Source: Cyanidioschyzon merolae (lineage: Eukaryota). Taken from it: 64,000 bases of DNA. The position numbers were made by a program, and so were the translations under genes. The notes under the pieces were generated by a model that made no database searches, was not told where the DNA came from, and saw nothing but the letters and a program-made list of their open reading frames with translations. Numbering within the stretch: the first letter of the stretch is position 1; each line of letters begins with the position of its first letter. Shown in pieces: positions 1 through 64,000 of the stretch. Where the stretch lies: the NCBI GenBank assembly GCA_000091205.1, contig AP006496.2. One strand, written 5' to 3'.

Positions 1-2823
1 CCAGTGAGATGAGTCTACTAGGGGTAAAAAGCCCACAGGGCGTGCCCCGTGAAGCGCTCCACATTGGCTCGCATATGCTTTTGGTTTTCAGAATGCTTCG
101 ATACTTTGTCGCATCTATCCTGCGGTTAGGACGGTCACAGACGTGGCAACGCGACGCGACAAGGCATTCTGGCACGTGTGTGTTTTTTTTTGCGATCCCT
201 GCTCCGACGATCACGCCATTCTGCATCCTCTGCCCGGGGTATATGTTGTGTCGTCGTACGAAGGTTTGATCGAAGAATTCCACAGGAGCGAGGACAACTG
301 GCACCTATGCGTACGGATCTCGTGAGGAAACTTCCTCGACGAGGTGCGTCAAGACGTGCAAAGCGAGGTAAACCCTCGTCAACGGACAAACCGAGCGATC
401 TCCAATAGCGTCCGGCATATCTTTTTGGAAGATTTGTCCTGGCGCTACGTCCTCGTAGAAAAGCTTTTACAACGGTTTCAGGTTGATCTCCCGGCTCGGA
501 AAGTTTCTCGTTTCGGTACCTTCTCGTCCTCTTTTCGGGAGGATTTCTCCTTTTCATCCGATGACTCCTTCTCCATTTCGTTTCTTTCGCGATGTGGCAT
601 GGATGCGATTGTTGTACTCCATACCTGGTTTCTGTCGGGATTCAGATGCGCTGGATTACGGGTGATACCAGGATCCGCATTCTCTATGTATGTATCTACT
701 ATTCCTCAGATAACTTTTGGTGAACTTCTCCGTCGCGAGCTTCTCTGCAGGCCGACAAAGGCATTGCCACCACCCGATGCGCACGAACTGTAGCGTCACA
801 GCGCAGTTGAGGGCCGGTCAAGGTAGAGAACTACCTGCCAAGCAGCAATTCATCGAAAACCTTTCGTTTCACGGATGCAAACGACTCGTCTAGCGTTTCA
901 TGGCCGTAACTACGGTATCAAACAGCAGAGAAGACGCTTTCGTCTGGATTGAATCAGGGGAACACGACGACGCGAAGAGCAACAGAACACCAATCATAGC
1001 TGCGTACTCCTTTATTGCTTTGGTTGATCCAAAGCGAAGTTCTCTAATAGGTGGACAGAGGAATGCGGGAAGAGGAAGCTACGAAGAGTGCCAACACGAG
1101 GGTTAAGATGCTGAAGGATCCTGACCGTTTGGCGATGTTTGGGCGACCAGACCAGGGCGTCGCCGTATGGCTGACGTTGTCGTCATACTCGCTTCTCGCT
1201 TCTATGCGAGCACCAGCTTAGTCCTCTCTGCGCACTCGCATACAGATCTACCATTTCTCCCAAATAAAGCCTCATGAATGTAGGTGAACACCTGGCCCTC
1301 CAGTGCCAAGCGTTCGCATTTCACCAGGATATCGATCGTGCGTTATTCAACGCGTGACGCGTCTAGCGTAGAAATCTGTGTTGTTCTCGGTCCGATAGGG
1401 TGTCTTCATCACTGTCCGCAATAGCGGTCCGGATGCTTCACATCCTGTGGCTTCTTCTATAGTGCTTCCTGGGGAAATCAAGGCATGGATTGGATTGACG
1501 AGAACATAGTCGTTCAGATAGGGTTCGCCAGGTTCTGTCGTGGACGCAAAATGTTAATATTAGGGATCAGGAGAGCGGCGGCTCACCTAGCCGATGAACT
1601 ATGAACGACTGATTGATGAATGAGCGACCGTTTGAGGCATGCTAGCAGCGACAAAGTCAAGTCTTTATGGCACCTTCCTTCAATCTGCAGGTTACATTCT
1701 TTTTGTTGAATAGATACGAAAAAAATAAACAAAAATAAAAACAGGTGTGTGAGTACGGGTGTTCCAGAACCCACTGCTCAGAGTCTAACGTCTCCGGATT
1801 TCGCAGCAGAGCGCATGAGGTAGCGTGCACCCTCGGGCCCATTTCCTCGGTAACGATCATGACCTGAATAGGCGGCAAGCGTCGCAGAGCTTCGGTGCGC
1901 AGTGGCAGTGGGTCGCAAGCTCTGCGTTTACAGAGCATGCATCCAGCTTCAAAACGTTGAATGCCGGTCAGTTTTTCTGGATTTTCACCACGTCGCTCTC
2001 GCTTAACATAGACTGGAGGGAAGGAATTCGTCGACGTGGCGTACCGCGTGCACGACATAGCGTCAGCGGGGCTTTGCATTGCGCACTGCAGAGCCGGCTC
2101 TTCGGGCACCTATTTCGCTTCCACGAACTGCGTCATTCGTGCGACCGGGTTGGCGTCGAGGGCGCGCTCGCTTTCGAAACCCCATGGTTTCGAGCCGCTC
2201 GCGAGAAGCGACAGCTCGGTGAGCACACTCTAAAAGACCGCTGTTGCAACGAGACGGGTCGGTTTCCTTTGAAAACTTCACGGCACTGGGTCGTCAACAC
2301 GCGTACAGCCGGGGCTCTGGGTTACGGCACTGAGGTAAAACCTGTGACTTGCATATGGTCGACGTATTTGATCCCTGATCCAGATCCATAAAACTGTGTA
2401 ATCCAGGACGTAGTACTCCCGTTCCAGAAGAGCCCCGCAACTCCACTTTCAGAGAGCGATGCAACCAAACACCGCGCCGCTGCATACCGTTAACCTAGCA
2501 GGCTCCTTCGTTAACGAGGCACCAAAAAGGCAAAGACGAGCACCGCCACAGAGTCCCAGAGACTCTATGCAATATCTCTTGCCTCCAAGCGCAAGGCTAG
2601 GGGGGCTTGAGAACGCCCGAACAACGGCGTGCAGGGTCCATTGCCCCAGACAAACACGTGCCCGCAAAATCCGGTCCCAATAATAGACACAACGTGATAG
2701 CGTCAGTGCAATGTACAATGTATGGAGGCTTGAGTCCGCCAGTCGGAAACCGCATACATTGCCAGAAGAGCCTACGTGTTTCCGTGAGCAGTTGGTGCAC
2801 CGCCTGCGATACGAGGCGCGCCG

Positions 2824-3264
2824 ATGCCCACTCGAAGCGCGCGCGCGCGCGCAGGCACGCCGCCTCGTCTGATAAGAGACTCTTCGTCGTCTGCCGCGGC
2901 TTTGTTGAGTGTTATTCTCCTGTACGCAGCTCTTGCTCCAGTGGGTACAGGCGCGACGCATACCATGTCAGGTTCGCTATGGAAACAACTGCTTACGCGC
3001 GGTAGCTCCTGGATAGAACCTTCAGCGTCTCCCGAGGCGTGGGAAACGACAGCTGAACTTCGCAGGAAGCTTCTGTACACACACCTAAACGCTTTGCCAG
3101 CTCGTTGGCAGGCCGCACAGAACGAGTTCAGGGCGCTGCTGGACAAGATGCGCGCGAAGCAGGTCACCGTCGAAGAGGCCGGGTGGTTCGGCGTGCGCTG
3201 TGTTGAGCTGTATGCATTCTATTGTTTGGGGGTCGTGATCGGGGCGCGCTCCCTCCAGCCGTGA
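2824..3264 (+). CDS. Mitochondrial F1Fo ATP synthase subunit g (probable true start at Met ~2965, 'MSGSLWKQ…')
   Basis: C-terminal 'QVTVEEAGWFGVRCVELYAFYCLGVVIGARSL' closely parallels the subunit-g C-terminus (human ATP5MG '…TVKEAVLNGLVATEVLMWFYVGEIIGKRGIIGY'). Size (~100 aa) fits. The first 47 codons of the ORF are probably an upstream extension. Confidence 0.5.
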   Translation: MPTRSARARAGTPPRLIRDSSSSAAALLSVILLYAALAPVGTGATHTMSGSLWKQLLTRGSSWIEPSASPEAWETTAELRRKLLYTHLNALPARWQAAQNEFRALLDKMRAKQVTVEEAGWFGVRCVELYAFYCLGVVIGARSLQP

Positions 3265-4311: not shown

Positions 4312-4480
4312 GGTTCACGGAACTGTCGTGTGTGCTGTTCTGGAAGTCAACAAGCAGCCGCTTATTCAGAACGTTCCTGGTACGCGAATTGCGCGCAGAG
4401 CGCACTGCACGTGCGCGATCGCAGATTTTTCTCGATTTGCAAAAACTTTTACGTAGACCATGGATCCCAGATTGTGGGAT

Positions 4481-4592
4481 GCATTGGCATTGGCATTGGC
4501 ATTGGCATTGGCATTGGCATTGACATTGGCATTGGCATTGGCATTGGCATTGGCATTGACATTGGCATTGGCATTGGCATTGGCATTGACAT
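4481..4592. repeat. (CATTGG)n hexanucleotide microsatellite, ~18 units with occasional GACATT variants
   Basis: Direct reading: 'gcattggcattggcattg…gacattggcattg…'. It produces artefactual poly-dipeptide ORFs in all frames (HWHWHW, CQCQCQ, LALALA, ANANAN). Confidence 0.95.
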
Positions 4593-4739
4593 TCGGGAAA
4601 GCGTCCATCATGTTGCGACACCCTACTTCCAAGTTCCATGACCCATACTTCCTCTTTGGTATACTGGTCGTTTCGTATGTTCTATCGTGCGCCGAGTACC
4701 TGCTTTGAACCCCAGCACAAGCACCGCTACCGCTGGAAC

Positions 4740-5075
4740 AGATACTGCACGGAGACAGAACGGCTTTGCTATACCGCTGAGGGTATCGGGCTGAGGCGTG
4801 GTTGGCGCGATACCGGGTCGGAGTACACCGTAACTCTGGGATCGCTCGAGCAGAGACTGCACGGAGACAGAACGGCTTTGCTATACCGCTGAGGGTATCG
4901 GGCTGAGGCGTGGTTGCCGCGATACCGGGTCGGAGTACATCGTAACTCTGGGATCGCTCGAGCAGATACTGCACGGAGACAGAACGGCTTTGCTATACCG
5001 CTGAGGGTATCGGGCTGAGGCGTGGTTGCCGCGATACCGGGTCGGATTACACCGTAACTCTGGAATCCTGCAAGC
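4740..5075. repeat. ~114-bp tandem repeat (minisatellite/satellite-like), ~2.9 units
   Basis: The unit 'agatactgcacggagacagaacggctttgctataccgctgagggtatcgggctgaggcgtggttg[g/c]cgcgataccgggtcggagtaca…ctcgagcag' recurs head-to-tail at ~4740, ~4854 and ~4968. Overlapping minus-strand ORFs share the repeated peptide 'RPGIAATTPQPDTLSGIAKPFCLRAVS'. Confidence 0.9.
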
Positions 5076-7035
5076 TGTGCAGAGAGACGTACTGCGGTCG
5101 GTAGCACGTGGCGGCTTCGGTTTGTGTGCCTTGCTGAATGTTAGGTTCAGGATCTTTTGCAACGAGGTGGCGCATCTCGAGGTACGATCGATGCGCACCT
5201 GGTCCTGTCAATGTCACAAACCGCGAATCAGACTTTCGTCAAAGGTTAACAGTTCGCTGACGTGACCCTCAGGGTACCGGGCGTATAGTGTGCGCTCGCG
5301 GAGAGCGCCGCTGAGGATGCTGCGTTGATATACAGCAACTTCACCACGTCCAGGAGAACGTCGGCAGGGAGTCGAGATATTCGATGCGTCTGCTGCAACG
5401 TATGGCACATGACCCTGGATGAACAGCCGTGCATGTGCATCGCATGACTTCTGTGGGGTTTCTTGCGAGATACGTCGATCAGTTGGTCAGAGTCCGGGGC
5501 CACAGCTGTTTCTTCAGATCGATCACAAGTAAAGAATGAGTTCGGTAATACGTCGCCGCTCCGAGGGCGCGATATGCGCATGCCCTGAGTCACGGGGTAT
5601 GGCGGATCGGCGAGAACGTCAGTGCTGCTCGCTTGTACCCTACCAAGCGGAACAAATCGACACAAACGAGCTATTTTGTTGTCATGATACCTCGAAGATC
5701 CGGCAGACGGACCACGAACCTGAAGTGCAGTGTTTCTGCATATGCAACGCAAGAGCGCCAGCGCCGGGTTCCGTGTCCGGAAGATGTGCGCAGCCTCGTT
5801 GAACCCGAACCCAGGTTGTTTTGAGAGCGAACCCCAAGTTGATTTGCAGCAGCCGCAACGATCGTCGCATGCTTCTTGTTCGTTTCTGACCGACGTGACT
5901 GCATCCAGCGCGCGGAGATGAGCAAGTATTCAGGCCTGCCGAGCGTTCGAGGAAAATCCAGAGTCCTAAGCTGCATGGACAAAGCAACTGCATCTGCCAC
6001 GTAGCCACGGCACTGTAGCGTCAACAATTGCGATGCACCGGAGGCTTCTCCGCATGCAATCGCAGGGATCGTGAGCCTTGTTCGCTGCTGTATAGCAGGA
6101 ACTTGATTCAACTCGCAGTCGTGCAGCATCCATCGCATCTCCAAATGCTTTGTTCGCGAGACTTGCGGATATAACGCTCGCTGCGCAGCGTTCTTGAATA
6201 TGATCGCTGACGGCTTCATATGCGGAGCAAAAACCTGCTAGGCACATCTGGGCAAAATTACCGTGACGACGGCATCTCGGCGCCTCGAGCTCCGGATCCG
6301 ACGTACGCCGCTACGGTGCACATGCACGAGATCTCGCTCGCGAAAGTAGTGTGATCCTTTTTTCGTATCATTTGCCACCTAAAATAGCAGTTTGTGATCA
6401 GTCTCGGAGGTTCGGGTCAGATATGAGAGCACGTACACGCTCCGAATAGCACCGTTTCATTGCCTTGGGGATTCCAGCGTCCAGTGCTTCGCCTGGCGTG
6501 CGTCATTGCTGTGACGCTCGAACGCCCAGCGCACCGGCAGACGCACATCGCACCAGTGTGCCGAGCATTCGCGCTGATTCCGGAGACAGATTTATAAACG
6601 GAGCCTTTAAATCGAGTCAACAATCCCCAGTCCTAACTTTCATTGAACAGGCTCCATGCTGTACCTGGTTGTTCATGCAGTGTAAGCGCGTGCTCGAGCG
6701 AACGAGTCATGAAAAGGTCTGGCAGTCGAGCGCATGCCCGTACGCAACAGATGGTGTGCATATGACTCGATGCAGAGCGCACTCGAGCGCATGTCGAGCT
6801 GTGCCCAGCACGCTGTCTATCCCTGGATTCGCGAACGGTACGCTTGAATTACGATCCGTTCAGCTGCAAAAGGCACATACCTCGGACATCCGGTTCTCGA
6901 TAGAGATATCGCAAGCTGGAGATGGTTTGCATGGTGCCGGAGAATGAAATCCGTTCTTATCGCACAGGCATACACCGATGCGCCGTTTCTGCAACATAGC
7001 GTCATACCAGAAAGGCAAAAGCTTCGTGCACAGAG

Positions 7036-27944: not shown

Positions 27945-28483
27945 GACGCGGGAGACGACTGGCATCGATCACGATTGCGACGCTGCCGAAGCTGCTGCGG
28001 TTCATAGAGCGAGATCCCTGCGATTACGTAAACAGCGGTATACCGATGTATAGGCATAGCGCGCACCGGGAGCTTGTGTGTTCGCGATCCGCCTCAGGTT
28101 CATGAGGACCGACATTGATCCCCAGCTAGCTGCTGCGGTGCCTTGCCGAGCGTATCTTGTCGGAGCAGCAGGACGCTGATGTGCCTGGCTTCTGGATGTC
28201 AGTATCCGGCACTTGATCAGCAGATCCTTTATCAGACGAAGTGATTCTATATTATTGAAAAATCGACGAGCTGGAGCCCATGACATGAATCGAGACCGCA
28301 TGCACAGTCCTGCCCGTTCGCTTTGAAGATATCGCTCGTCAGAGGTCGGAGCAGCTATCAAAGTATATGCATAAGACTATCTCCTCGTCAATAGGTTCCG
28401 TCGCTCACGTTGTTTAGGCTCAATGAAGCGAAAACGTTTCGCAACTATCGGGTGCAAGAATACCCACCCGCAGATGCCTCCCA

Positions 28484-29893
28484 GTCTTTTTTCGACGGGC
28501 CTCTTGGCATCGGCTTCAGTTTCTCCTTGAATACTTCGAGCTTCAGAGGCTACACTACAAAGACGGAACGCGTCAGCTCTGCGGGTCTGGTCGACAGCAC
28601 TGCACATCGTCTGGTATTCATGGAGATGTTGAAGGATCGGTTTACGAACTCTTTGCGATTTGTTGCCGCTGGTGGAACTCACCGTTGCAAGGGTTGTGTA
28701 GAGCTCGCGCCTGCTGTGCTTCGACAGTCTCGTCTTCGTCCCGCTGGGCAAATACGTTTTCTCGACGATCTCCCCTCTTCTCCTTCTCCTTCTCCTTCTC
28801 CTTCGTCGCTTGCGCTTCTTCGCTCGATGGTCGGTGAGAAGAGGATTTTTCCGTTTCTCTTCCAGGCGGCTGGCGATGACGGCCCTCGTGTATCCCCGAC
28901 TTTCATGTCCATTACTTTCACGTGGATTCCCTTATTTCTTCAAAATGAATGCATTTTTTATGCCGCTAGGTTGGGATGTTCCCGAAGAAGACCGGGGTTT
29001 GCGCAAGAAAGCTGACCTGTGCTCCCGATTTGTCGCTGTGTGCAGAACGCTTCTGCGATTCCTCCAGTGCAGCAATCATTACGTTGCATGATAAAAAACA
29101 CTCCCTTGCTGAGGTTGAATCACGCACCGTACGGAGTAATGAAAAGCAACTCGACCCCGATATCATCGGCAAAAGCCCTAACGCAAAGGGAATGGTAACA
29201 TGCAACATTGTCCATTGGAAGCACGTCGCCAGACGTCAGGGAGAGGTCACCCGTGAATCGACCAGGTCGGTGCTGTTGTGTGCGCCTTCTCTAGGAGCGA
29301 ACGTGATTCTGCCACCCGGGCCCACTCCAGATAAATCCGATGAGGATATCATCGCTCTCTTCGAGCTTCAACAGACGTACAATGAGCGCCCTGCTCCGCG
29401 AATACCCATATACGCACCGCCCGTTTCACCCGAAGCAAGTCTCATCGACAGAAAAAACACACCAGCGTCACTCGGCTTCATATCGATAGCGACTCTCCAT
29501 GAACGCTGTCGTTGCGATTTCAGTGGATGTTGGTCGTGCGTGAAGCTGGACTTTTCTGCGACGGTATCCCAGTGATTTCAGGACCACACGAACAAGCTGT
29601 TGAGAAACAGAGATGCCCGTGGCGGCCTCTATCGTCGCTTTTGCTTTCCGTAACGTAAACGAGGGGTCGTTTTCTACCATTTCCCGCAAGCGCGCTTTGA
29701 GAATATCGGTTTTAGGTGCAGAGCGCTTGTACTTCTTCCTTTCAGCGTTCCTCAACCATCTGAGTACCGTGGTATGACTAACTTGAAGGAGAGATGCAGT
29801 CTTCCTTGAACTTTTCAGTAAAGAATATATCCTCCAGGCAATTCTTCTACGATCTACAGGGTACATTCCATAGTGACTTTGTTCGCTTGCTAC
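28484..29893 (-). mobile_element. Tc1/mariner/IS630-superfamily-like transposon remnant, family 2 copy A (~1.41 kb)
   Basis: 98-99 % identical, inverted copy of 40452..41858 (translated ORFs differ by 1-3 aa). Contains a transposase N-terminal HTH ORF and an internal (TCTCCT)n microsatellite. Boundaries come from direct alignment of both copies ('cagtcttttttcgacgggcc' … 'ctttgttcgcttgctacacac'). Confidence 0.8.
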
Positions 29894-29950
29894 ACACCCC
29901 AGCAGCCGTGAAACGAATCTGGGTTGAAATACGATAAACAACGTCATCAT
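29468..29950 (-). pseudogene. Truncated Tc1/mariner/IS630-type transposase (paired-like double HTH only; DDE domain absent)
   Basis: '…YSLLKSSRKTASLLQVSHTTVLRWLRN…KRSAPKTDILKARLREMVENDPSFTLRKAKATIEAATGISVSQQLVRVVLKSLGYRRRKVQLHARPTSTE…' has the HTH1, GRPR-like linker and HTH2 arrangement of Tc1/IS630 transposases. The ORF stops where the DDE catalytic core should begin. Confidence 0.6.
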
Positions 29951-40138: not shown

Positions 40139-40451
40139 GCCTCGTGTTGGTTGCCTCCTATGTGAGCGTTACCGCTGTCGCTCTCGTCACCAGGGTAACG
40201 AATGAGCCAGAAGGACGACACTTGGCATATGCGACTTGCGTCCACGCTAAACACCGTTACCTGAGCGACGACGCATCCAAAGCAACGGTGCTTTCCCCGA
40301 GGGATAGGTACGCTTTGCTCAGCAGCAGCGCGTAACGGACGCGTTCTAGGGGCGCGCGGCACAACGATCCGCATCGGGGCCATTTTCGCTCTGGAGGGCG
40401 CACCCCAGGCTCGACGTCGATTCTGTTCCACCTCTCCTAGTACCTCAGTGG

Positions 40452-41858
40452 TGTGTAGCAAGCGAACAAAGTCACTATGGAATGTACCCTGTAGATCGTA
40501 GAAGAATTGCCTGGAGGATATATTCTTTACTGAAAAGTTCAAGGAAGACTGCATCTCTCCTTCAGGTTAGTCATACCACGGTACTTAGATGGTTGAGGAA
40601 CGCTGAAAGGAAGAAGTACAAGCGCTCTGCACCTAAAACCGATATTCTCAAAGCGCGCTTGCGGGAAATGGTAGAAAACGACCCCTCGTTTACGTTACGG
40701 AAAGCAAAAGCGACGATAGAGGCCGCCACGGGCATCTCTGTTTCTCAACAGCTTGTTCGTGTGGTCCTGAAATCACTGGGATACCGTCGCAGAAAAGTCC
40801 AGCTTCACGCACGACCAACATCCACTGAAATCGCAACGACAGCGTTCATGGAGAGTCGCTATCGATATGAAGCCGAGTGACGCTGGTGTGTTTTTTCTGT
40901 CGATGAGACTTGCTTCGGGTGAAACGGGCGGTGCGTATATGGGTATTCGCGGAGCAGGGCGCTCATTGTACGTCTGTTGAAGCTCGAAGAGAGCGATGAT
41001 ATCCTCATCGGATTTATCTGGAGTGGGCCCGGGTGGCAGAATCACGTTCGCTCCTAGAGAAGGCGCACACAACAGCACCGACCTGGTCGATTCACTGGTG
41101 ACCTCTCCCTGACGTCTGGCGACGTGCTTCCAATGGACAATGTTGCATGTTACCATTCCCTTTGCGTTAGGGCTTTTGCCGATGATATCGGGGTCGAGTT
41201 GCTTTTCATTACTCCGTACGGTGCGTGATTCAACCTCAGCAAGGGAGTGTTTTTTATCATGCAACGTAATGATTGCTGCACTGGAGGAATCGCAGAAGCG
41301 TTCTGCACACAGCGACAAACCGGGAGCACAGGTCAGCTTTCTTGCGCAAACCCCGGTCTTCTTCGGGAACATCTCAACCTAGCGGCATAAAAAATGCATT
41401 CATTTTGAAGAAATAAGGGAATCCACGTGAAAGTAATGGACATGAAAGTCGGGGATACACGAGGGCCGTCATCGCCAGCCGCCTGGAAGAGAAACGGAAA
41501 AATCCTCTTCTCACCGAACATCGAGCGAAGAAGCGCAAGCGACGAAGAAGAAGGAGAAGGAGAAGAGGGGAGATCGTCGAGAAAACGTATTTGCCCAGCG
41601 GGACGAAGACGAGACTGTCGAAGCACAGCAGGCGCGAGCTCTACACAACCCTTGCAACGGTGAGTTCCACCAGCGGCAACAAATCGCAAAGAGTTCGTAA
41701 ACCGATCCTTCAACATCTCCATGAATACCAGACGATGTGCAGTGCTGTCGACCAGACCCGCAGAGCTGACGCGTTCCATCTTTGTAGTGTAGCCTCTGAA
41801 GCTCGAAGTATTCAAGGAGAAACTGAAGCCGATGCCAAGAGGCCCGTCGAAAAAAGAC
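40452..41858 (+). mobile_element. Tc1/mariner/IS630-superfamily-like transposon remnant, family 2 copy B (~1.41 kb, inverted relative to copy A)
   Basis: Reverse-complement match to 28484..29893 across all ORFs (199-aa ORF has 2 substitutions; the transposase-HTH ORF is identical over the shared part). Confidence 0.8.
40482..40880 (+). pseudogene. Truncated Tc1/mariner/IS630-type transposase HTH domain (copy B)
   Basis: Same 'YSLLKSSRKTASLLQVSHTTVLRWLRN…' sequence as 29468..29950. No DDE core follows. Confidence 0.6.
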
Positions 41859-42022
41859 TGAGAGGCTTCAGAGGATATATACACGCCCCATGATAGTGCA
41901 AAGAACTGCGTTTCATTGAACACGCGCTGACGCGAGTACAGTTTGGTTGCGCTTGTACTTGCGGTAACGCTACGTCTCGAAAAGCGCGCATTAACCTCAC
42001 AGATGCTTTTCTTGCACTTCCA

Positions 42023-49416: not shown

Positions 49417-51284
49417 TGTCCATCAAATAGCGATGTGCAGGTGTCCATGCGGTGCTGGCTTGACAACTGAGGTGCTCAGCGGTTTCTGGTGCTCGTTCCA
49501 AGTCGGAACCCAAACGGGTCAAGTGCTGGCCTGCCGCCACAGCGGGGCGTCGGCCTCGGCGCTGATCGAAGATTATCGTTTATTGGACAGAATGCTTGTA
49601 TGGACTAGGGATGCTAGATTCCGCGATGGATAGTGACATCCAGGAACGCGCAGATCATTCTTGACGCTACATCCACGTTAGATTATTTATACTCGTTCTC
49701 GGAGATTCTGGTCATTTCCTGCGACAAAAAACTGCCGAGGCTGTCTTGAGCACCCGCAATAACGCCCATACAACCGGTGCGGATTCAGTACGGAGACGAA
49801 ACGGCTTCGAAATACTCCCGGGAGCGTCGGCTCGAGGCACGCTTCACTAGTCACAGAATCGGGATGCATCATCATTCTGGGAGCCTGAATCCTGCGCATA
49901 CGGAAGCACTGCCTGTGGAGGCGCGAAGCGATGTGCTAGGAGTCCACTGCGACCATAGCGACGCCCCTACGCAGCTTACCAGCTACGGGTCCCAGAATGA
50001 AATGCGTTTCGGACAAGCAGCCATGTATTGGCTCAGCACCCGTCAGTGCAGAAGCACACAAAGCGCTGGCCCAGAACACTCATCCGGCTCGCAGGACCTG
50101 CCTCTTAGACGTAAATGGTCGAATATACAGGGAATGTTTTCCCCTTTCATCGCTCACCATATCCATTCAAACACCAGGTTCTCGAGTTGCTAGTGCGCAT
50201 TTCGTTTCTTCGAGATTGCTCATGCACACGATTCTACCCGCCGCTGCGTCTTCTCTCCGTGCATTGCCGGGCACAGCAGCAGGCACACAGCACCCCGAGT
50301 GACATATGAACTGGGCATGCACTCCGAAGGGAAGCATGTTCAGTGACTAGCTTAACTTGGAGGTCGGATGCGGCATGATGGGCGTTTTCACTTATGTCGA
50401 TACCTTTCGCGTACAATAGCGCGTCGTCGGTTCCTCTGGGGGTTCCGTCGATCAAAAACACAGGCGCGATGCTGTGCGGGTAGCCGCGCGAAGCACTGCT
50501 TCCAAATAGCGTCAAGGCGAGATATCTTTTGATGATTGATCCACGAATCTGACCAGCAATCCCCGGGATATGCAACCGCTGCCTATACCCAGGGAAGCGA
50601 GCCCTCATGTGCTTCGGAGACCTCTGGGTCACGTGAATCACGCTCCAGTCTGACTGTCGAGAATGAGCGTTTCATTCACCAAACGAGCCTCCAAGCGTTG
50701 AATCCTAGTCCAGCACCGGACATAGCACCAGCAAACGCGGGCATCTCAGCACAGAACACGCGTATCGTGCCTGCAAAGAAGACTTCACTCGCAGGATTTG
50801 ATGTTTTTCTCACTGCATCCATCGATGGCAAGCGCCATGGTTAAATGCCTACCCGCTAGAATCTTTCCCGAGAATAGAGGATCGTTTACCATGACCAGGG
50901 ATTCCCCACTGCACGACGCTCACTGGTATCCGAGAGCGTGTCGCTTGTTCCGCACCTCACCGTCAGGGTCCATTGGCGAACCCGCTTCATCACTGTCCAG
51001 GATATGCTGGAGCATACCGAACGCAGTCAGCTGGGTACACGTGTGGGAAGCAGCCCGTCGAGAAGCGTGGCGCTGGGCGAGCTACATCTCCCGACGTGGC
51101 GGAACGGGTGCAAAGCATCCCAAAACAGCTTCCGTTCGTTGCTTGAAGCAAGTGCAGGCACCGGATACCGTTCAAAAGCGCTTTCATACGTATCACGTTC
51201 GGTTCGAAAGAGCGCTTCGTCCAAGTCGGGACTGGACGACGTTCGTGTGTTTCCGGAAGTGGAGACGCAAGTCGGCGACAATCC

Positions 51285-59295: not shown

Positions 59296-61785
59296 GTTCT
59301 ATACGTCAACTGATGGCGAATGCGTCTCGCGGAGCTCGCGTTTCGTCGATCGAGAAGCGCATCGATGCGATTCTCGATCAATAGAGCTGGTGCTTTCCGC
59401 TGCTGACGCTGCCGCCTTTTTTTGGATAGGCGTGGTGTGCTTTGGCATTTGTGAGCTTGGCAACCTGGTGTGCCACTGGCGCTTGCGACAGGCCCCATAC
59501 GGCTTGGTTTTCGAGCTTGTGTCGTGTCCGAACGACACACATTTGAGGTACTGGTGTGGGCAGGATGTACATTGATGACGCAGATAATCGCAGGCATCCG
59601 GTTTATGCTCGTGGGCATTGCGCAGCTGATGGTCTGGGTTCGGGCGAAGCATCGGCAGTCTCTGAAGGAATTTGGAACCCTCTATCCCTGGATGAAGAAA
59701 CGCATGCTTCCTTTCGTTTGGTGAATGCGCAGCGGGTCACGAAATTTGTGTGCGTGCTGATGGGCAAGCCCTGACTTGGAGGTACGAGGCCGGTGCGCTT
59801 GTGACTTTTCGTCACTTTTGGATGATGGTGGATTCGGTGATCGTTGGAAACCGTGTAGTGAAGTGCACCCATACTCGTGATGGTGCTCGATAGTCGAGCA
59901 ACCAAAGTGCACTCGGATATTTTTCCCAGAATACCGTGGCGGCGACTAGACATCACCCTGAATATGAACGTTTAGGGTACGCGCTTGTTTTACGTACGTA
60001 TTAGGAAACCGTAGCATGCTGTGCGGCTTCGTTGCGCACTATTCACGGCCAGCATGCCGTCACCAGAGCACCTGGTGCCGGCTGCAGCCTCCAGCTTCTG
60101 GTACCGATCGTTTGATAGCGCCAGTCAAGATGGATCGTTTCTTGACCTCAGCTCTATCACTAGCGTTTTCGACAAAACGTCATCAATATCAGAAGACGAC
60201 TGGTGATGGAGGCGCGACCGGCGGAGCTGACGCGGTCCACCTTTCTGGGACATCCTCTCAGGGTCGAATTGTACAAAGAGAAGCTGCAACCGATAGCAGG
60301 GGGCCGGTCGAAAAAGGCTAGGAGACGTCTGTGATTGGATATTAATTTACCCTAAATGGTCGTGAAACGTTTTCTTTCCATTGAACGGTAAGGGATAGAG
60401 AAAAAATCCGTCTCTCGAGCAGTTTTACTACTGGAAGGGAAAAATCAGCAGGTGGCTAACGAACATCCGCGTGCTTAAGGAATGGCGGGTGGCGTAGGGG
60501 GTGCAGATAAGTTTACGGTTTGGTGCTTGCACAACTACATACAAGTTAGGCTCTTGAAACTAATCTTATAGAGTAGATAAGAATACAGTATGTGCTTTTG
60601 TCGGGTGCCTCGATCGTGCCAGGCGAGATGCGTCGGCCGAACGTCGTGGCAGATATGGACGCTACCTGTGTGCTATGCCTCTGTCAAGATCACCGGGTCC
60701 GAGACAGTAGCAGGCACCATAACTTGGGCAATGACGATAGCATGGAAATGACTTGAACGGTCATCAGTACCAGCCCATGACGCCGGAAAGAAGCAAAATT
60801 CATGTCAGTTCCTTATTCCAGCGTCCGTGCAGCATGCATAACAAGCATAGAGAATAAACTTACATCCGTGTTCGGGAACACTACCGTATTTAGTTTGGTT
60901 ACGATCAATACAACTAACGAAACTCTTCAAGGCTAGTGTGATGCATACCTCATCCACACAAGCGTAAGCCGCAGAGAACGCTACGCTTTTGATAGAAGCG
61001 TCGAGAGGTATCGTGCCAGGCCCCAACAGCTCCATGTATGTCAGGGCGGTACTGCGATGGGCAGTAGCGTCGGCACCAGCGACATAGCCTATAGCAAGAG
61101 ACTACTCTACGTGAGTTTTCGATTTAGGACACCTGATTTTTGCTGCTGCGCGATGCGAACACGCAAGTGCCAAGGCGGGGTGTCGGACACGTGTCCTTCA
61201 TCGATCGGTGAGGCGTCTCGCGCGGTGCACGCATCGCGCTCGGTGAGCGCATCTGGGAGATCAGGCAGACATGAGACACGACATGTATGTCGCCGTTGAA
61301 GGGAAATGCGATCGCGATCTTTAGCGTGTTGCTCTCAAGTTGTATTTGCGTTAAAGTCATAGCAGAGTATACTTTTCAGGTCAATTATGTTTCAACCCTC
61401 AGTTTAGTTTATTCAAGTGATTTTTCGCGGTTTATATCAGAGGCGTTGATGGAGCGTTCTTTTTCAAAAAAACAAAAAAGGAAAGCTATGAAAAAGCAAG
61501 TCGGCGATCCTGGAGGCCCAGGGTCGCCGGCTGTCAGAAAAAAAAAACAAAAACAGTGCCGATTCCAGAAGAAAAGCAAGAGAAAAAGAAGCAAAAGGGG
61601 AGGCCTTACGTCGAAGGCGGCAAAAAAGACAACTGTACGACGAGATGGTGGTTAAAGGCTGTCTTCTTAAACAAATCAAGGATCCCCACAGGGAAACGTT
61701 GCGATACGCTATCGAAAAACGTGTCGACTCGTACTCGAAGAGTATTGTCAAGGCGTCGTCAGGACTGATGCATTTGTCGAGGTAG

Positions 61786-62460
61786 ATGTATCGCGAAGTG
61801 GCGCACATGGAAACGGTCGAGATTCCGGACGAGTTTTTCGACAAGACCTCTATTCGTCAGCTGATGCTTGGTACAGGGGAAGCGCGGAGGGAAACTCAGA
61901 TAGTGCATGCCCTCCACGAAAGCTTCGCGGAATTCCGCTTCGAAGGTAATCGATACAAGGGTGACTCGACTATTTACATATACGGGGCGGTGAAGTACCT
62001 CACGAACCTGAGGAACCATATGACGATGGACCTCGAACATTTTATGATACGCGCCGTGTTCGCTCTCGACCCGCGCATCTCTCGCAAAGGTGCACAGGCG
62101 ATGATCAATGGCATCACGAAAGATCGCAAGCGTGAAGATGAGGTCGAATTTGTAGACAAGAAGGCGTCAAAAGAGCGCATGAATGAAGCTTCTGTAATCC
62201 GTGCGGCTATCCAAGAGCATCGTGCGGTACTGGGGTTTGTTAATCCAACAGAAAAGATATCAGAGTTGAAAAAAGACAAGGAAAGATACTATCGCCTCGT
62301 CCTGCGATATTTCGTGTTTCTGGACCGAGAGCTCGAACGCAAAGCGGAGATGAAGCTGAGTGAGGAGAGAATTAAAAAAGAGTGGGAGAGACGGGCGGCT
62401 TCGCTCATGGGAAGCGCTTCTACGCGGTTCCAATGTGCAACATCAAGTCACATTTTGTGA
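61786..62460 (+). CDS. Hypothetical 224-aa ORF directly upstream of the Fanzor/TnpB-like RuvC core (possible N-terminal exon/domain of the same gene)
   Basis: Lys/Glu-rich helical ORF ('…[44 protein letters not shown]…'). Preceded at 61409..61768 by Lys/Arg-rich NLS-like coding potential in other frames. Linkage to the downstream RuvC segments is inferred from adjacency only. Confidence 0.3.
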
Positions 62461-62606
62461 CGATCGACTCCAGCATCCTCTATGGCATCATGAGACAGAT
62501 CAGTGGGGAGTTCGATGTTAGCAACGGGAAGTTCATCGGTGAAAACCGGGAGATGCACTAGAAGAATATCTTCGAGTTCAAACTTCTCAAAGCGGGCAAG
62601 CAAAAG

Positions 62607-63713
62607 TTGTTCACTGGGATGATCGAAACCGATGGAGTAGCCTTGTGTGTACACGATCCGCGGTTGACGAAAGATCGTTCAGTGCCGCCCTCGGCTTCGC
62701 CCGTGGCGAAGGATGCAGAAAACAAAGCGGCGGATCCTGCGACGCAGCAGGTAGAGGATAACGACCTTGTCGTTGGTACGGCGAAGCATGAAGATGAGAA
62801 GGAGGCGGGTCTTGAGACGCAGAAAGTGCAGGATAACGACTTTGTCGTTGGCGCGGCGAAGCATAAAGATGAGAAGGAGGCGGGTCTTGAAACGCAGAAA
62901 GTGCAGGATAACGACTTTGTCGTTGGCGCGGACCTCGGGAACACGAATATCGTAACCATCGCAGCATCCACGCCTGGGGAAGATGATACTGACGGTGACT
63001 TACGTCAGAGAGACACGCGACTTTTGAGATTCCCGACAACGAGATGCTATCGAGAATCCGGTATAACGAATGCAAGGAAGAGAATCGAGATATGGAATGC
63101 AGGAGTGAAAGAGCACCTCGAAGCTTTGAGCGAGGTAACGAGCCGCGGAGCGGACTTTCGAGCTTTTCGGGAATTCCCGCAAGTTCGTGTTGCTCATTGG
63201 GATGCGCTGTAGAGGAGTATACAAAGCCTCGGTGGGCTCGTTTGCGAATGAACTTGCACTGTGGGAAGCAGCGTGCATTCGCGAATTTTTTCAATGAGTT
63301 GCGTGCCCTGAAGGAGGATGAAAGTCAGAGGCCCGTAGTAGCGTCTTGGGCAGGGCGATGGAAGACCCAAACAGGGACTACTCCAGCTCCAACGACGAGG
63401 GTATGCAAGGAGTGTGCACGGCGTTTCGTTACAATACCGATAGATGAGTTTCGAGCATCGTATACACACCACGAGCTGGGTTGTACACTTCAGAGGGTCG
63501 AGATGGAAACGTGTCAGCGGCGCCCTGAGGATACAAAAAGTACGGACCGCTGACGGAAGAGCAAATGGAAAGGAGGGCGACAGTTCGTGGACTCCTTGCA
63601 CTAGCGCTTTCTGCAAACAACGGCAAGAAACGTATCGAATCGTGAACGGAGACTTTAACGCCGCTATCAATATAAGGAAATGTACGGTGATGGAAAGAAG
63701 ACCTCCAGAGTAG
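62607..63713 (+). pseudogene. Fanzor/TnpB-like RuvC-nuclease core (eukaryotic OMEGA-type RNA-guided endonuclease homologue), read through three frames (62607..63212, 63044..63553, 63444..63713): frameshifted or intron-containing
   Basis: The RuvC-I motif 'DFVVGADLGNTNIVTIAAS' matches the TnpB consensus 'vGiDlGi.n.a'. Upstream, '[13 protein letters not shown]' is β-strand-like. The middle frame 'WAGRWKTQTGTTPAPTTRVCKECARRFVTIPIDEFRASYTHHELGC' matches 'GDW…G..P……V..VDEy.TSq.C'. The final frame 'WTPCTSAFCKQRQETYRIVNGDFNAAINIRK' is a C-x4-C zinc finger plus the RuvC-III hallmark '[DR]D.NAA.NI'. Confidence 0.55.
62748..62930. repeat. 72-bp (24-aa) tandem repeat, ~2.5 units, inserted immediately upstream of the RuvC-I motif
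   Basis: 'cagaaagtgcaggataacgac[c/t]ttgtcgttgg[tac/cgc]ggcgaagcat[g/a]aagatgagaaggaggcgggtcttga[g/a]acg' repeats. Translated it gives 'QKVQDNDFVVGAAKH[KE]DEKEAGLET' x3, and the last unit ends in the genuine 'DFVVGADLG' motif. Confidence 0.85.
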
Positions 63714-64000
63714 ACGAGTGAGAACTTTGGGGACAACCTCTCAGCGTGGGACTATATGAGAAAAAGCTGGAAGCAGTAGTGAGTGGCCGCCCCCAAAAAA
63801 CCGGGAGGCACCTGCACGACAGTTGGAGGCTTCTTGTCTAGGGCGGGCTTCGCGCCACTACTGTACAAGGTCGGCATCGTTTTTCTTTTGAAAGACGTTT
63901 GTTTCCAGGGGTGGCTCCTAGTATATTGCTTCGCGCTGCCGCAGGCACTAGTCCTGTATGCGCAATTTCAGGCTCCCAGAATGATAAGGAATCCCGATTC

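Follow-up and report, generated by a model that had tools for sequence, protein, structure and literature searches.

Several described systems bear on the locus considered here. For the TnpB nucleases of IS200/IS605 elements, the work of Karvelis and of Altae-Tran in 2021 reportedly established both a guide RNA (ωRNA, or reRNA) and a hairpin at the right end of the element. Among eukaryotic relatives, a scaffold-plus-guide mechanism has been shown for SpuFz1 of Spizellomyces punctatus (Saito et al., 2023, PMC10432273; Xu et al., 2024, PMC11423790). Fz1 scaffolds can be simple, with as few as two stem-loops. The closest described family is CMe-1A of Cyanidioschyzon merolae, a transposon of ~150 copies that encodes a Fanzor1 protein, each copy being ~80% identical to a consensus of ~3 kb (Bao and Jurka, 2013, PMC3627910). 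In that description TIRs are absent and TSDs undetermined, and the 5' 635 bp of CMe-1A are common to TE-N2_CMe, a second repeat with ~70 copies; other Fanzor1 genes were located inside Helitrons (Bao and Jurka, 2013, PMC3627910). The paper predates ωRNAs and gives the 3' tail of the element no function (PMC3627910). No ωRNA for CMe-1A was found in the searchable literature, and such an RNA is to be expected of Fanzor1, a system of a known kind.

The window analyzed here is a stretch of 64,000 nt from C. merolae (contig AP006496.2), with ~55% GC and long ORFs without introns. A sequence-only reading had placed a candidate ωRNA in its last part, 63714-64000, directly downstream of a Fanzor-like ORF. 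Positions 63714-63897 belong to a decayed CMe-1A copy, of which they form the 3' end. The 2013 publication already covered the family, its protein and its 3' terminus, and the window copy is an ordinary member. The short non-coding tail with which this copy ends is the likeliest site for the candidate guide-RNA scaffold of the family.

A decayed CMe-1A copy and its right end

The reference for CMe-1A was the 3169-bp consensus in Additional file 2 of Bao and Jurka (2013; Mob DNA 4:12; PMC3627910), to which the window copy is 86.4% identical over 2494 aligned positions (Table 1). The two have in common the ORF (CMe-1), its stop codon, the 3' terminus, the association with TE-N2_CMe and the lack of TIRs, and the locus fits the published description of an element without TIRs whose 5' part is common to TE-N2_CMe. 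They differ in that the window copy is a pseudogene and in its first ~690 bp, where consensus positions 1-647 have no match and an alternative 5' region, termed X, that is not TE-N2-like is found instead. By blastn, X is 81-87% identical to L017 1370-2126, L069 3545-4301 and L075 3471-4224.

Table 1. Features of the CMe-1A copy and its surroundings, with positions in the window and, where aligned, in the published consensus.
Feature	Window position	Strand	Length	Consensus position	Basis or remark
Part of the copy aligned to the consensus	61235-63897			648-3169
5' non-coding region of the copy	60545-61487	+			60545-61235 of X type; 61235-61487 aligns to consensus 648-905
Degenerate Fanzor1 (CMe-1) ORF	61488-63841	+	734 aa in consensus	906-3110	ATG 61488 kept; ancestral frame ends at TAG 63839-63841
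Premature stop (consensus TTG to TAG)	63711-63713	+			Codon comparison with consensus
Remnant of the last 43 Fanzor1 codons (..TRENFVGQPLKVELYEKKLEAVVGGRSKKTGRRLHVSWRRFV*), decayed coding sequence	63714-63841	+	128 nt		P0006/P0007 C-termini, consensus ORF end, indel list
Small hairpin AGGC-N5-GTCT (consensus AGAC-N5-GTCT)	63827-63839	+			Ends at ancestral stop codon
Conserved non-coding 3' tail, candidate ωRNA scaffold	63842-63897	+	56 nt		Column conservation, consensus terminus, nhmmer profile
Hairpin B, GGCGGG-CTT-CGCGCC	63842-63856	+			One G-G mismatch in window copy
Near-invariant core CGCCACTACTGTACA (consensus CGCCACTACTGTACAC)	63853-63867	+	~16 nt		Per-position identity, 63 copies
Terminal hairpin CGTTTTTC-TTTT-GAAAGACG	63878-63897	+			8 bp including one G-U pair; intact in window copy
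Published 3' terminus (last base, ..TTTTGAAAGGCG)	63897			3169
Junction and flank, TTTGTTTCCAGGG	63898-63910	+	~13 nt		TT common to most copies
Reversed TE-N2_CMe / CMe-1A 5' fragment (another repeat)	63911-64000	-	90 nt		Cut by window end; outside the 3' end of the Fanzor element

Between 61.0 and 64.0 kb, translation in three frames reveals a long TnpB/Fanzor-like coding region with repeated frame changes, in which RuvC-I (VVGADLGNTNIV) and RuvC-III (NGDFNAAINI) are visible. The stitched translation has 48 homologues of 25-71% identity, mostly from a few JGI metagenomes. A profile built from 11 members of the family matches the solved Fanzor1 structures of PpFz1 (9cf0, E = 7e-20), SpuFz1 (8gkh, 1.6e-18) and GtFz1 (9cer, 1e-7), and the Fanzor1 assignment is therefore sound: what had been called a Fanzor-like ORF from the letters alone is a genuine relative. 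Precomputed Pfam annotation of the close homologues P0006 and P0001 gives only a weak DUF8286 match, and that of a distant family member gives Cas12f1-like_TNB.

The same sequence-only reading had allowed for a functional nuclease and had ended its ORF at 63713; neither idea survives comparison with the family. Codon-by-codon comparison with the published consensus identified ~7 uncompensated 1-nt deletions (five frame changes by tblastn) and three nonsense codons, at 61783 (GAG to TAG), 62559 (TGG to TAG) and 63711 (TTG, Leu, to TAG). The ORF of the window copy is a pseudogene and cannot make protein. The P0006 and P0007 proteins extend beyond the position of the last of these stops, through ..RPPESTRENFLGQPLKVELYETTLEAVVDGRSKRTRRRLHLGWRRFV, and the window encodes the same C-terminal sequence in another frame up to the ancestral TAG, 63714-63841 being out of frame through a 1-nt deletion near 63730. 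Both proteins and the consensus read on to 63839-63841, so that the gene does not end at 63713, where the stop arose by nonsense mutation.

The window copy also carries a 150-bp in-frame expansion of a 75-bp tandem repeat (..KHEDEKEAGLETQKVQDNDFVVG..), which occupies 62702-62931. This repeat is an in-frame linker of variable copy number just upstream of RuvC-I, with three units in the window, one in the consensus, four in P0001 and five in P0007.

The decay of single copies can be set beside the history of the family as a whole. In 63 copies compared over consensus 2200-3169 (window 62930-63897), the identity of codon positions 1, 2 and 3 to the consensus is 0.90, 0.93 and 0.80, respectively. 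This pattern indicates that most of the divergence arose under purifying selection on the Fanzor1 protein, which Bao and Jurka also suspected for CMe-1A (PMC3627910), and such selection in turn implies a prolonged need for a functioning nuclease together with its RNA partner. Only ~6 of 62 distinct metagenomic copies retain an open frame of 700 aa or more. At the locus in the window the nuclease is dead, so that any activity would need protein supplied in trans by intact paralogues, and the tail of this copy is either inert or usable only in trans.

The right end was located by comparing copies. A metagenome scan returned 80 loci with relatives, from which 65 distinct copies, anchored on the RuvC-III region, were aligned. 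Conservation per column stays at 0.7-0.9 as far as 63899 and drops to 0.35-0.45 from 63900 onward. As the boundary in the copy alignment agrees with the published terminus, the right end of the transposon is at 63897-63899, or at most ~9 nt further, and lies inside the window. The expectation that paralogous insertions would reveal the right boundary, and that it would fall within 63714-64000, was thus borne out by the collapse of similarity after 63899 among the 65 copies. The element does not, as had been supposed, run off the window, which instead ends in a reversed fragment of another repeat that adjoins the element. This fragment shows 87% identity to consensus 275-366 (reverse complement) and 80% to window 49856-49947, and it was also detected by a profile.

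Directly after the terminal hairpin, T is found at +1 in 25 of 38 copies and at +2 in 32 of 38, followed by a weak TTG.TGGTG-like bias. Apart from this bias and one 16-mer common to a few copies, the flanks beyond the right end vary from copy to copy. The 16-mer, TTTGYTTCCAGGRGTG (63898-63913 in the window), recurs at L051 ~6985-7000 and L033 ~1341-1356 as well as in L058, L036, L049, L050 and L052. The copies that have it are otherwise ~20% different and carry different types of terminal hairpin, and their flanks diverge past the 16 nt. Possible explanations are that the ancestral 3' end was longer, that this sequence is a preferred target, or that flank has been carried over.

No inverted repeat of the element ends was found, nor an inverted copy of the tail at the left end. 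A carrier transposon with TIRs had been suspected, as the sequence of 63911-64000 recurs inverted upstream of the Fanzor gene in many loci. The idea was rejected because the recurring repeat is the TE-N2-like 5' region of the CMe-1A family.

These boundaries narrow the region first put forward for the guide RNA. At least two thirds of 63714-64000 is decayed coding sequence or foreign flank (63898-64000). Both GC-rich strings that had been quoted as stem-forming blocks downstream of the ORF are present. The first, at 63785-63815, is ancestral coding sequence (..GGRSKKTGRRLH..) and not downstream non-coding RNA, since the ancestral frame reaches 63839-63841; the second, at 63842-63875, does lie in the non-coding tail. 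The proposal of a scaffold region 3' of the ORF therefore keeps its place, where a conserved tail and a terminal hairpin are found, and loses its division into coding and non-coding sequence.

The conserved tail and its hairpins

The tail measures 59 nt in the consensus. That other copies would share the 3' segment proved correct, as the tail is common to ~60 metagenomic copies and is present in all main-family copies. It also aligns closely with the main family in a divergent sublineage (L069:3204) that is 67% identical over the last ~430 nt, tail included, and it is borne by the intact copies L072/L074, L002/L006 and L079/L081. An nhmmer profile of the tail matches at right ends only, always on the + strand, and copies of the tail or its core at left ends or at solo "ghost" loci were not found. 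The tail is missing from three short Fanzor C-terminal fragments in the window (28470-28691, 41651-41869 and 60182-60331). Conservation is concentrated in the core, where identity is at least ~0.9 per position in 63 copies as against 0.80-0.82 at third codon positions, and the core motif is present in right-end tails only. Identity over the whole tail is 0.76-0.77, which is not above that of third codon positions.

Three hairpins can be drawn in and beside the tail (Table 1), and the terminal one recurs most widely. At least 6 bp form within the last 26 nt in 43 of 50 copies, with a mean dG of -7.5 kcal/mol compared with -2.5 kcal/mol in control windows of the same copies, a comparison whose p-value is inflated because the copies are related. 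The 8-bp form of the window is found in 13 copies and a 10-bp form, CGTCGTTCGA-CTT-TCGAACGGCG, with its register shifted by 3 nt, in 27; several idiosyncratic versions still pair. The G-U pairs make the terminal hairpin specific to the + (sense) strand. In the L047/L064 lineage, hairpin B reads AGCGTG/CACGCT, with two pairs changed on both sides. Many folds of single copies include the small hairpin at the ancestral stop codon, which has 88.5% of cells paired and no both-sided pair changes.

Measured against dinucleotide shuffles, the tail folds modestly above chance: z = -2.44 for 63827-63899 (6 of 200 shuffles as stable), -3.23 for the terminal hairpin at 63876-63899 (2 of 200) and -2.44 for 63760-63899, compared with -1.5 for the minus strand of the tail and +1.18 for the flank at 63900-64000. 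RNAalifold returned no consensus structure from the 50-copy alignment or its sub-alignments. An explicit model of 27 pairs in four helices is compatible with the data, and the consensus is self-complementary: 80.2% of cells pair, as against 32-55% with slid partners. No covariation was detected with this model, as column-shuffled alignments pair at 80.8%, and 468 of 500 reach at least the observed value; the both-sided pair changes cluster in the L047/L064 lineage only. These double changes and the two registers of the terminal hairpin lend anecdotal support to a conserved structure. The stable, conserved structure that had been anticipated is thus a borderline matter, present as a recurrent terminal hairpin and absent as column-wise covariation or an RNAalifold consensus.

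A long-range helix, CAGTAGTG/CACTACTG (63774-63781 with 63856-63863), appeared in the minimum-free-energy fold of the window and was discarded as unsupported, its changes being mostly one-sided. An RNA overlapping the last ~150 nt of the ORF was sought through raised conservation of synonymous sites, and the difference was not significant (0.853 versus 0.821, p = 0.21). Rfam gave no match in the whole window at the gathering threshold, and by E-value only a chance-level Noro_CRE match (E = 3.6) in 63400-64000; a tRNA scan gave nothing.

The results for structure raise the question of whether the tail has any function at all. Its self-complementarity might be chance inherited from the ancestor of the family, with conservation reflecting shared ancestry only, and the lack of covariation by the shuffle control, the modest z-scores (-2.4 to -3.2) and the death of most copies would all agree with this. 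However, the codon-position pattern indicates that divergence took place mostly in functional lineages and not by neutral decay, on this background the core is conserved above second codon positions, and the two main sublineages have rebuilt the hairpin in different registers. An entirely functionless tail is accordingly regarded as improbable.

A role in the Fanzor1 mRNA is less probable still. As a 3' UTR, terminator or processing signal, the tail would use its hairpins for 3'-end formation or stability. It does follow directly on the ancestral stop codon, its T-rich hairpin and the TT(T) behind it superficially resemble a terminator, and no covariation specific to a complex fold was detected. 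Against this, conservation stops where the mobile unit stops and not at a typical UTR length, and an invariant core of ~16 nt would be unusual for the UTR of so diverged a transposon. Intrinsic terminators are also not known to be used by eukaryotic nuclear genes. Taken together, a UTR or processing signal appears highly unlikely.

Composite copies and neighboring repeats

The surroundings of the copy contain further fragments of the same and other elements. In four independent loci, the 690-bp X region (60545-61235 in the window) is preceded by the remnant of a divergent Fanzor 3' end. These composites are at window 60179-60346 plus 60545-61235, L017 1259-2126, L069 3079-4301 and L075 3360-4224. 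The upstream remnant keeps a right-end-like tail in L017, L069 and L075 and lacks it in the window, and the 5' truncation points differ. Such head-to-tail composites may hint at read-through or one-ended transposition.

At the other end of the element, a T-rich run (GATTTTTNTTTC) precedes most left ends, just upstream of consensus position 1 (L071, L041, L024, L032, L037, L047, L022 and window 4435). Its presence suggests one of two things: a start of the element ~12 nt upstream of the consensus as published, or insertion 3' of a T-rich, TAM-like motif. Two solo copies of the TE-N2_CMe / CMe-1A 5' region lie on the + strand of the window. One, at 49586-50147, corresponds to consensus 5-567 at 73% identity, and the other, at 4442-5108, corresponds to consensus 8-344, with segment 191-301 present three times in tandem.

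A 1.4-kb inverted repeat, window 28473-29898 and 40450-41869, has arms that are 98.9% identical and 10.5 kb apart. Each outer end is a fragment of ~220 bp from an older Fanzor C-terminus (consensus 2862-3084, 69% identity), and the inner part, in translation, resembles a decayed transposase of the Tc1/mariner kind (Pfam HTH_Tnp_Tc3_2, E = 1e-6, slightly under the cutoff). Homologues of ~70% identity are found in L079, L081, L033, L036 and L051. The structure may be a second, mariner-type element associated with Fanzor or a recent inverted duplication. Near the start of the window, residues 97-210 of P0040, a distant Fanzor1 homologue, weakly match 21-376 on the minus strand by tblastn (E = 4e-7, 31-48% identity); this stretch is probably another decayed Fanzor fragment.

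The tail as a candidate guide-RNA scaffold

The tail fills the interval from the ancestral stop codon to the right end, a place expected of a Fanzor or TnpB ωRNA, and conserved, scaffold-like sequence continues to 63899, where a copy-specific segment takes over. In place, size and this layout of hairpin followed by variable flank, the CMe-1A tail would suit a Fanzor1 ωRNA scaffold. In active members of the family, one transcript would cover the 3' end of the ORF and the tail, would fold into two or three small stem-loops with the terminal hairpin adjoining the guide, and would run on for ~15-20 nt of flanking sequence. With Fanzor1 bound to the tail scaffold, the flank-derived segment would guide cutting of matching DNA beside a TAM. 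By analogy with SpuFz1, the guide would begin at ~63898 and run to ~63915. The terminal hairpin of the top strand probably also marks the right end for the transposition machinery.

Since the protein profile matches the solved Fanzor1 structures, a scaffold in the tail with a guide from ~63898 would fit the SpuFz1 precedent. The two proteins are homologous (profile E = 1.6e-18 to 8gkh), whereas no sequence similarity was seen between the RNAs, and SpuFz1 elements have inverted repeats while CMe-1A has none. For SpuFz1, expression, binding and cleavage have been shown (Saito et al., 2023; Xu et al., 2024). Judged by homology and position, the chance that the CMe-1A tail acts as an ωRNA lies at even or slightly better.

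A hairpin near an end without TIRs would also be required by a single-strand or rolling-circle transposase, so that structure alone does not discriminate between an RNA and a DNA signal. The tail might be a transposon end at the DNA level only, with the hairpin and core as signals for a single-stranded-DNA transposase of the HUH/IS200-IS605 or the Helitron/rolling-circle kind, and with no guide RNA. Such a role fits the data equally well: the family lacks TIRs and detectable TSDs and has no inverted copy of the tail at its left end, the hairpin stands 0-2 nt from the boundary, and its G-T pairs make it strand-specific, like the ends of IS200/IS605. The head-to-tail composites in the window, L017, L069 and L075 resemble read-through of one-ended transposition, and other Fanzor1 genes lie inside Helitrons (Bao and Jurka, 2013). 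However, neither the window nor the loci examined showed an HUH or Helitron transposase, and the CTRR terminus of Helitrons is missing at the 3' end. Long purifying selection on Fanzor1 implies an RNA partner, and the ωRNAs of characterized Fanzor1 systems are all at the 3' end. In IS200/IS605, moreover, the right-end hairpin coexists with an ωRNA, and the two roles are thus not mutually exclusive. A tail that serves solely as a DNA end is rated as unlikely, though a serious contender.

Like IS200/IS605 elements with TnpB, CMe-1A has its nuclease gene on the 3' side, lacks TIRs and TSDs, carries a subterminal top-strand hairpin at the right end, and would be expected to draw its guide from the flank directly 3' of that end. 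It differs in its eukaryotic host, in a Fanzor1-type protein with a long N-terminal extension, and in that no TnpA (Y1) gene was found and no left-end hairpin is consistently present. A TnpA-like gene was not seen in a non-exhaustive look through the window and the loci, and a left-end hairpin analogous to the right-end one was set aside as inconsistent, the T-run pairing weakly with ..CAAAACG. At the 3' end of Helitrons, a hairpin lies ~10 nt upstream of the CTRR terminus. CMe-1A resembles this arrangement in the lack of TIRs and TSDs, the 3' subterminal hairpin and the tandem or composite copies, and other Fanzor1 genes ride in Helitrons; it differs in the position of its hairpin, 0-2 nt from the end, in the absence of CTRR, and in that no Rep/helicase gene was found.

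The best explanation of the locus is that it preserves the decayed 3' end of a CMe-1A copy together with a tail that would serve as an ωRNA in active members, as proposed above, and this explanation is considered reasonably probable. A bolder extension would make CMe-1A a eukaryotic counterpart of the IS200/IS605 elements that carry only TnpB. The ~60-nt tail would then be both a minimal ωRNA scaffold and the hairpin mark of the right end, and dead copies with intact tails would supply guides in trans, so that the family would persist by RNA-guided homing. The setting is a Fanzor1 under purifying selection, with ~150 copies in a genome of 16 Mb in which no cognate transposase is apparent. This extension is speculative and, on balance, doubtful.

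The single locus, as a dead copy of a catalogued transposon, matters little alone. The CMe-1A family to which it belongs is an old, many-copy lineage of Fanzor1, with purifying selection on the nuclease, a sharp right end and a tail that is short and conserved. The genome of Cyanidioschyzon, the likely host, is small, and the alga can be manipulated genetically. If the tail is indeed an ωRNA scaffold, a compact scaffold of ~60 nt would join the Fanzor1 set, and Cyanidioschyzon would be a convenient natural system for the role that Fanzor plays in vivo for its transposon.
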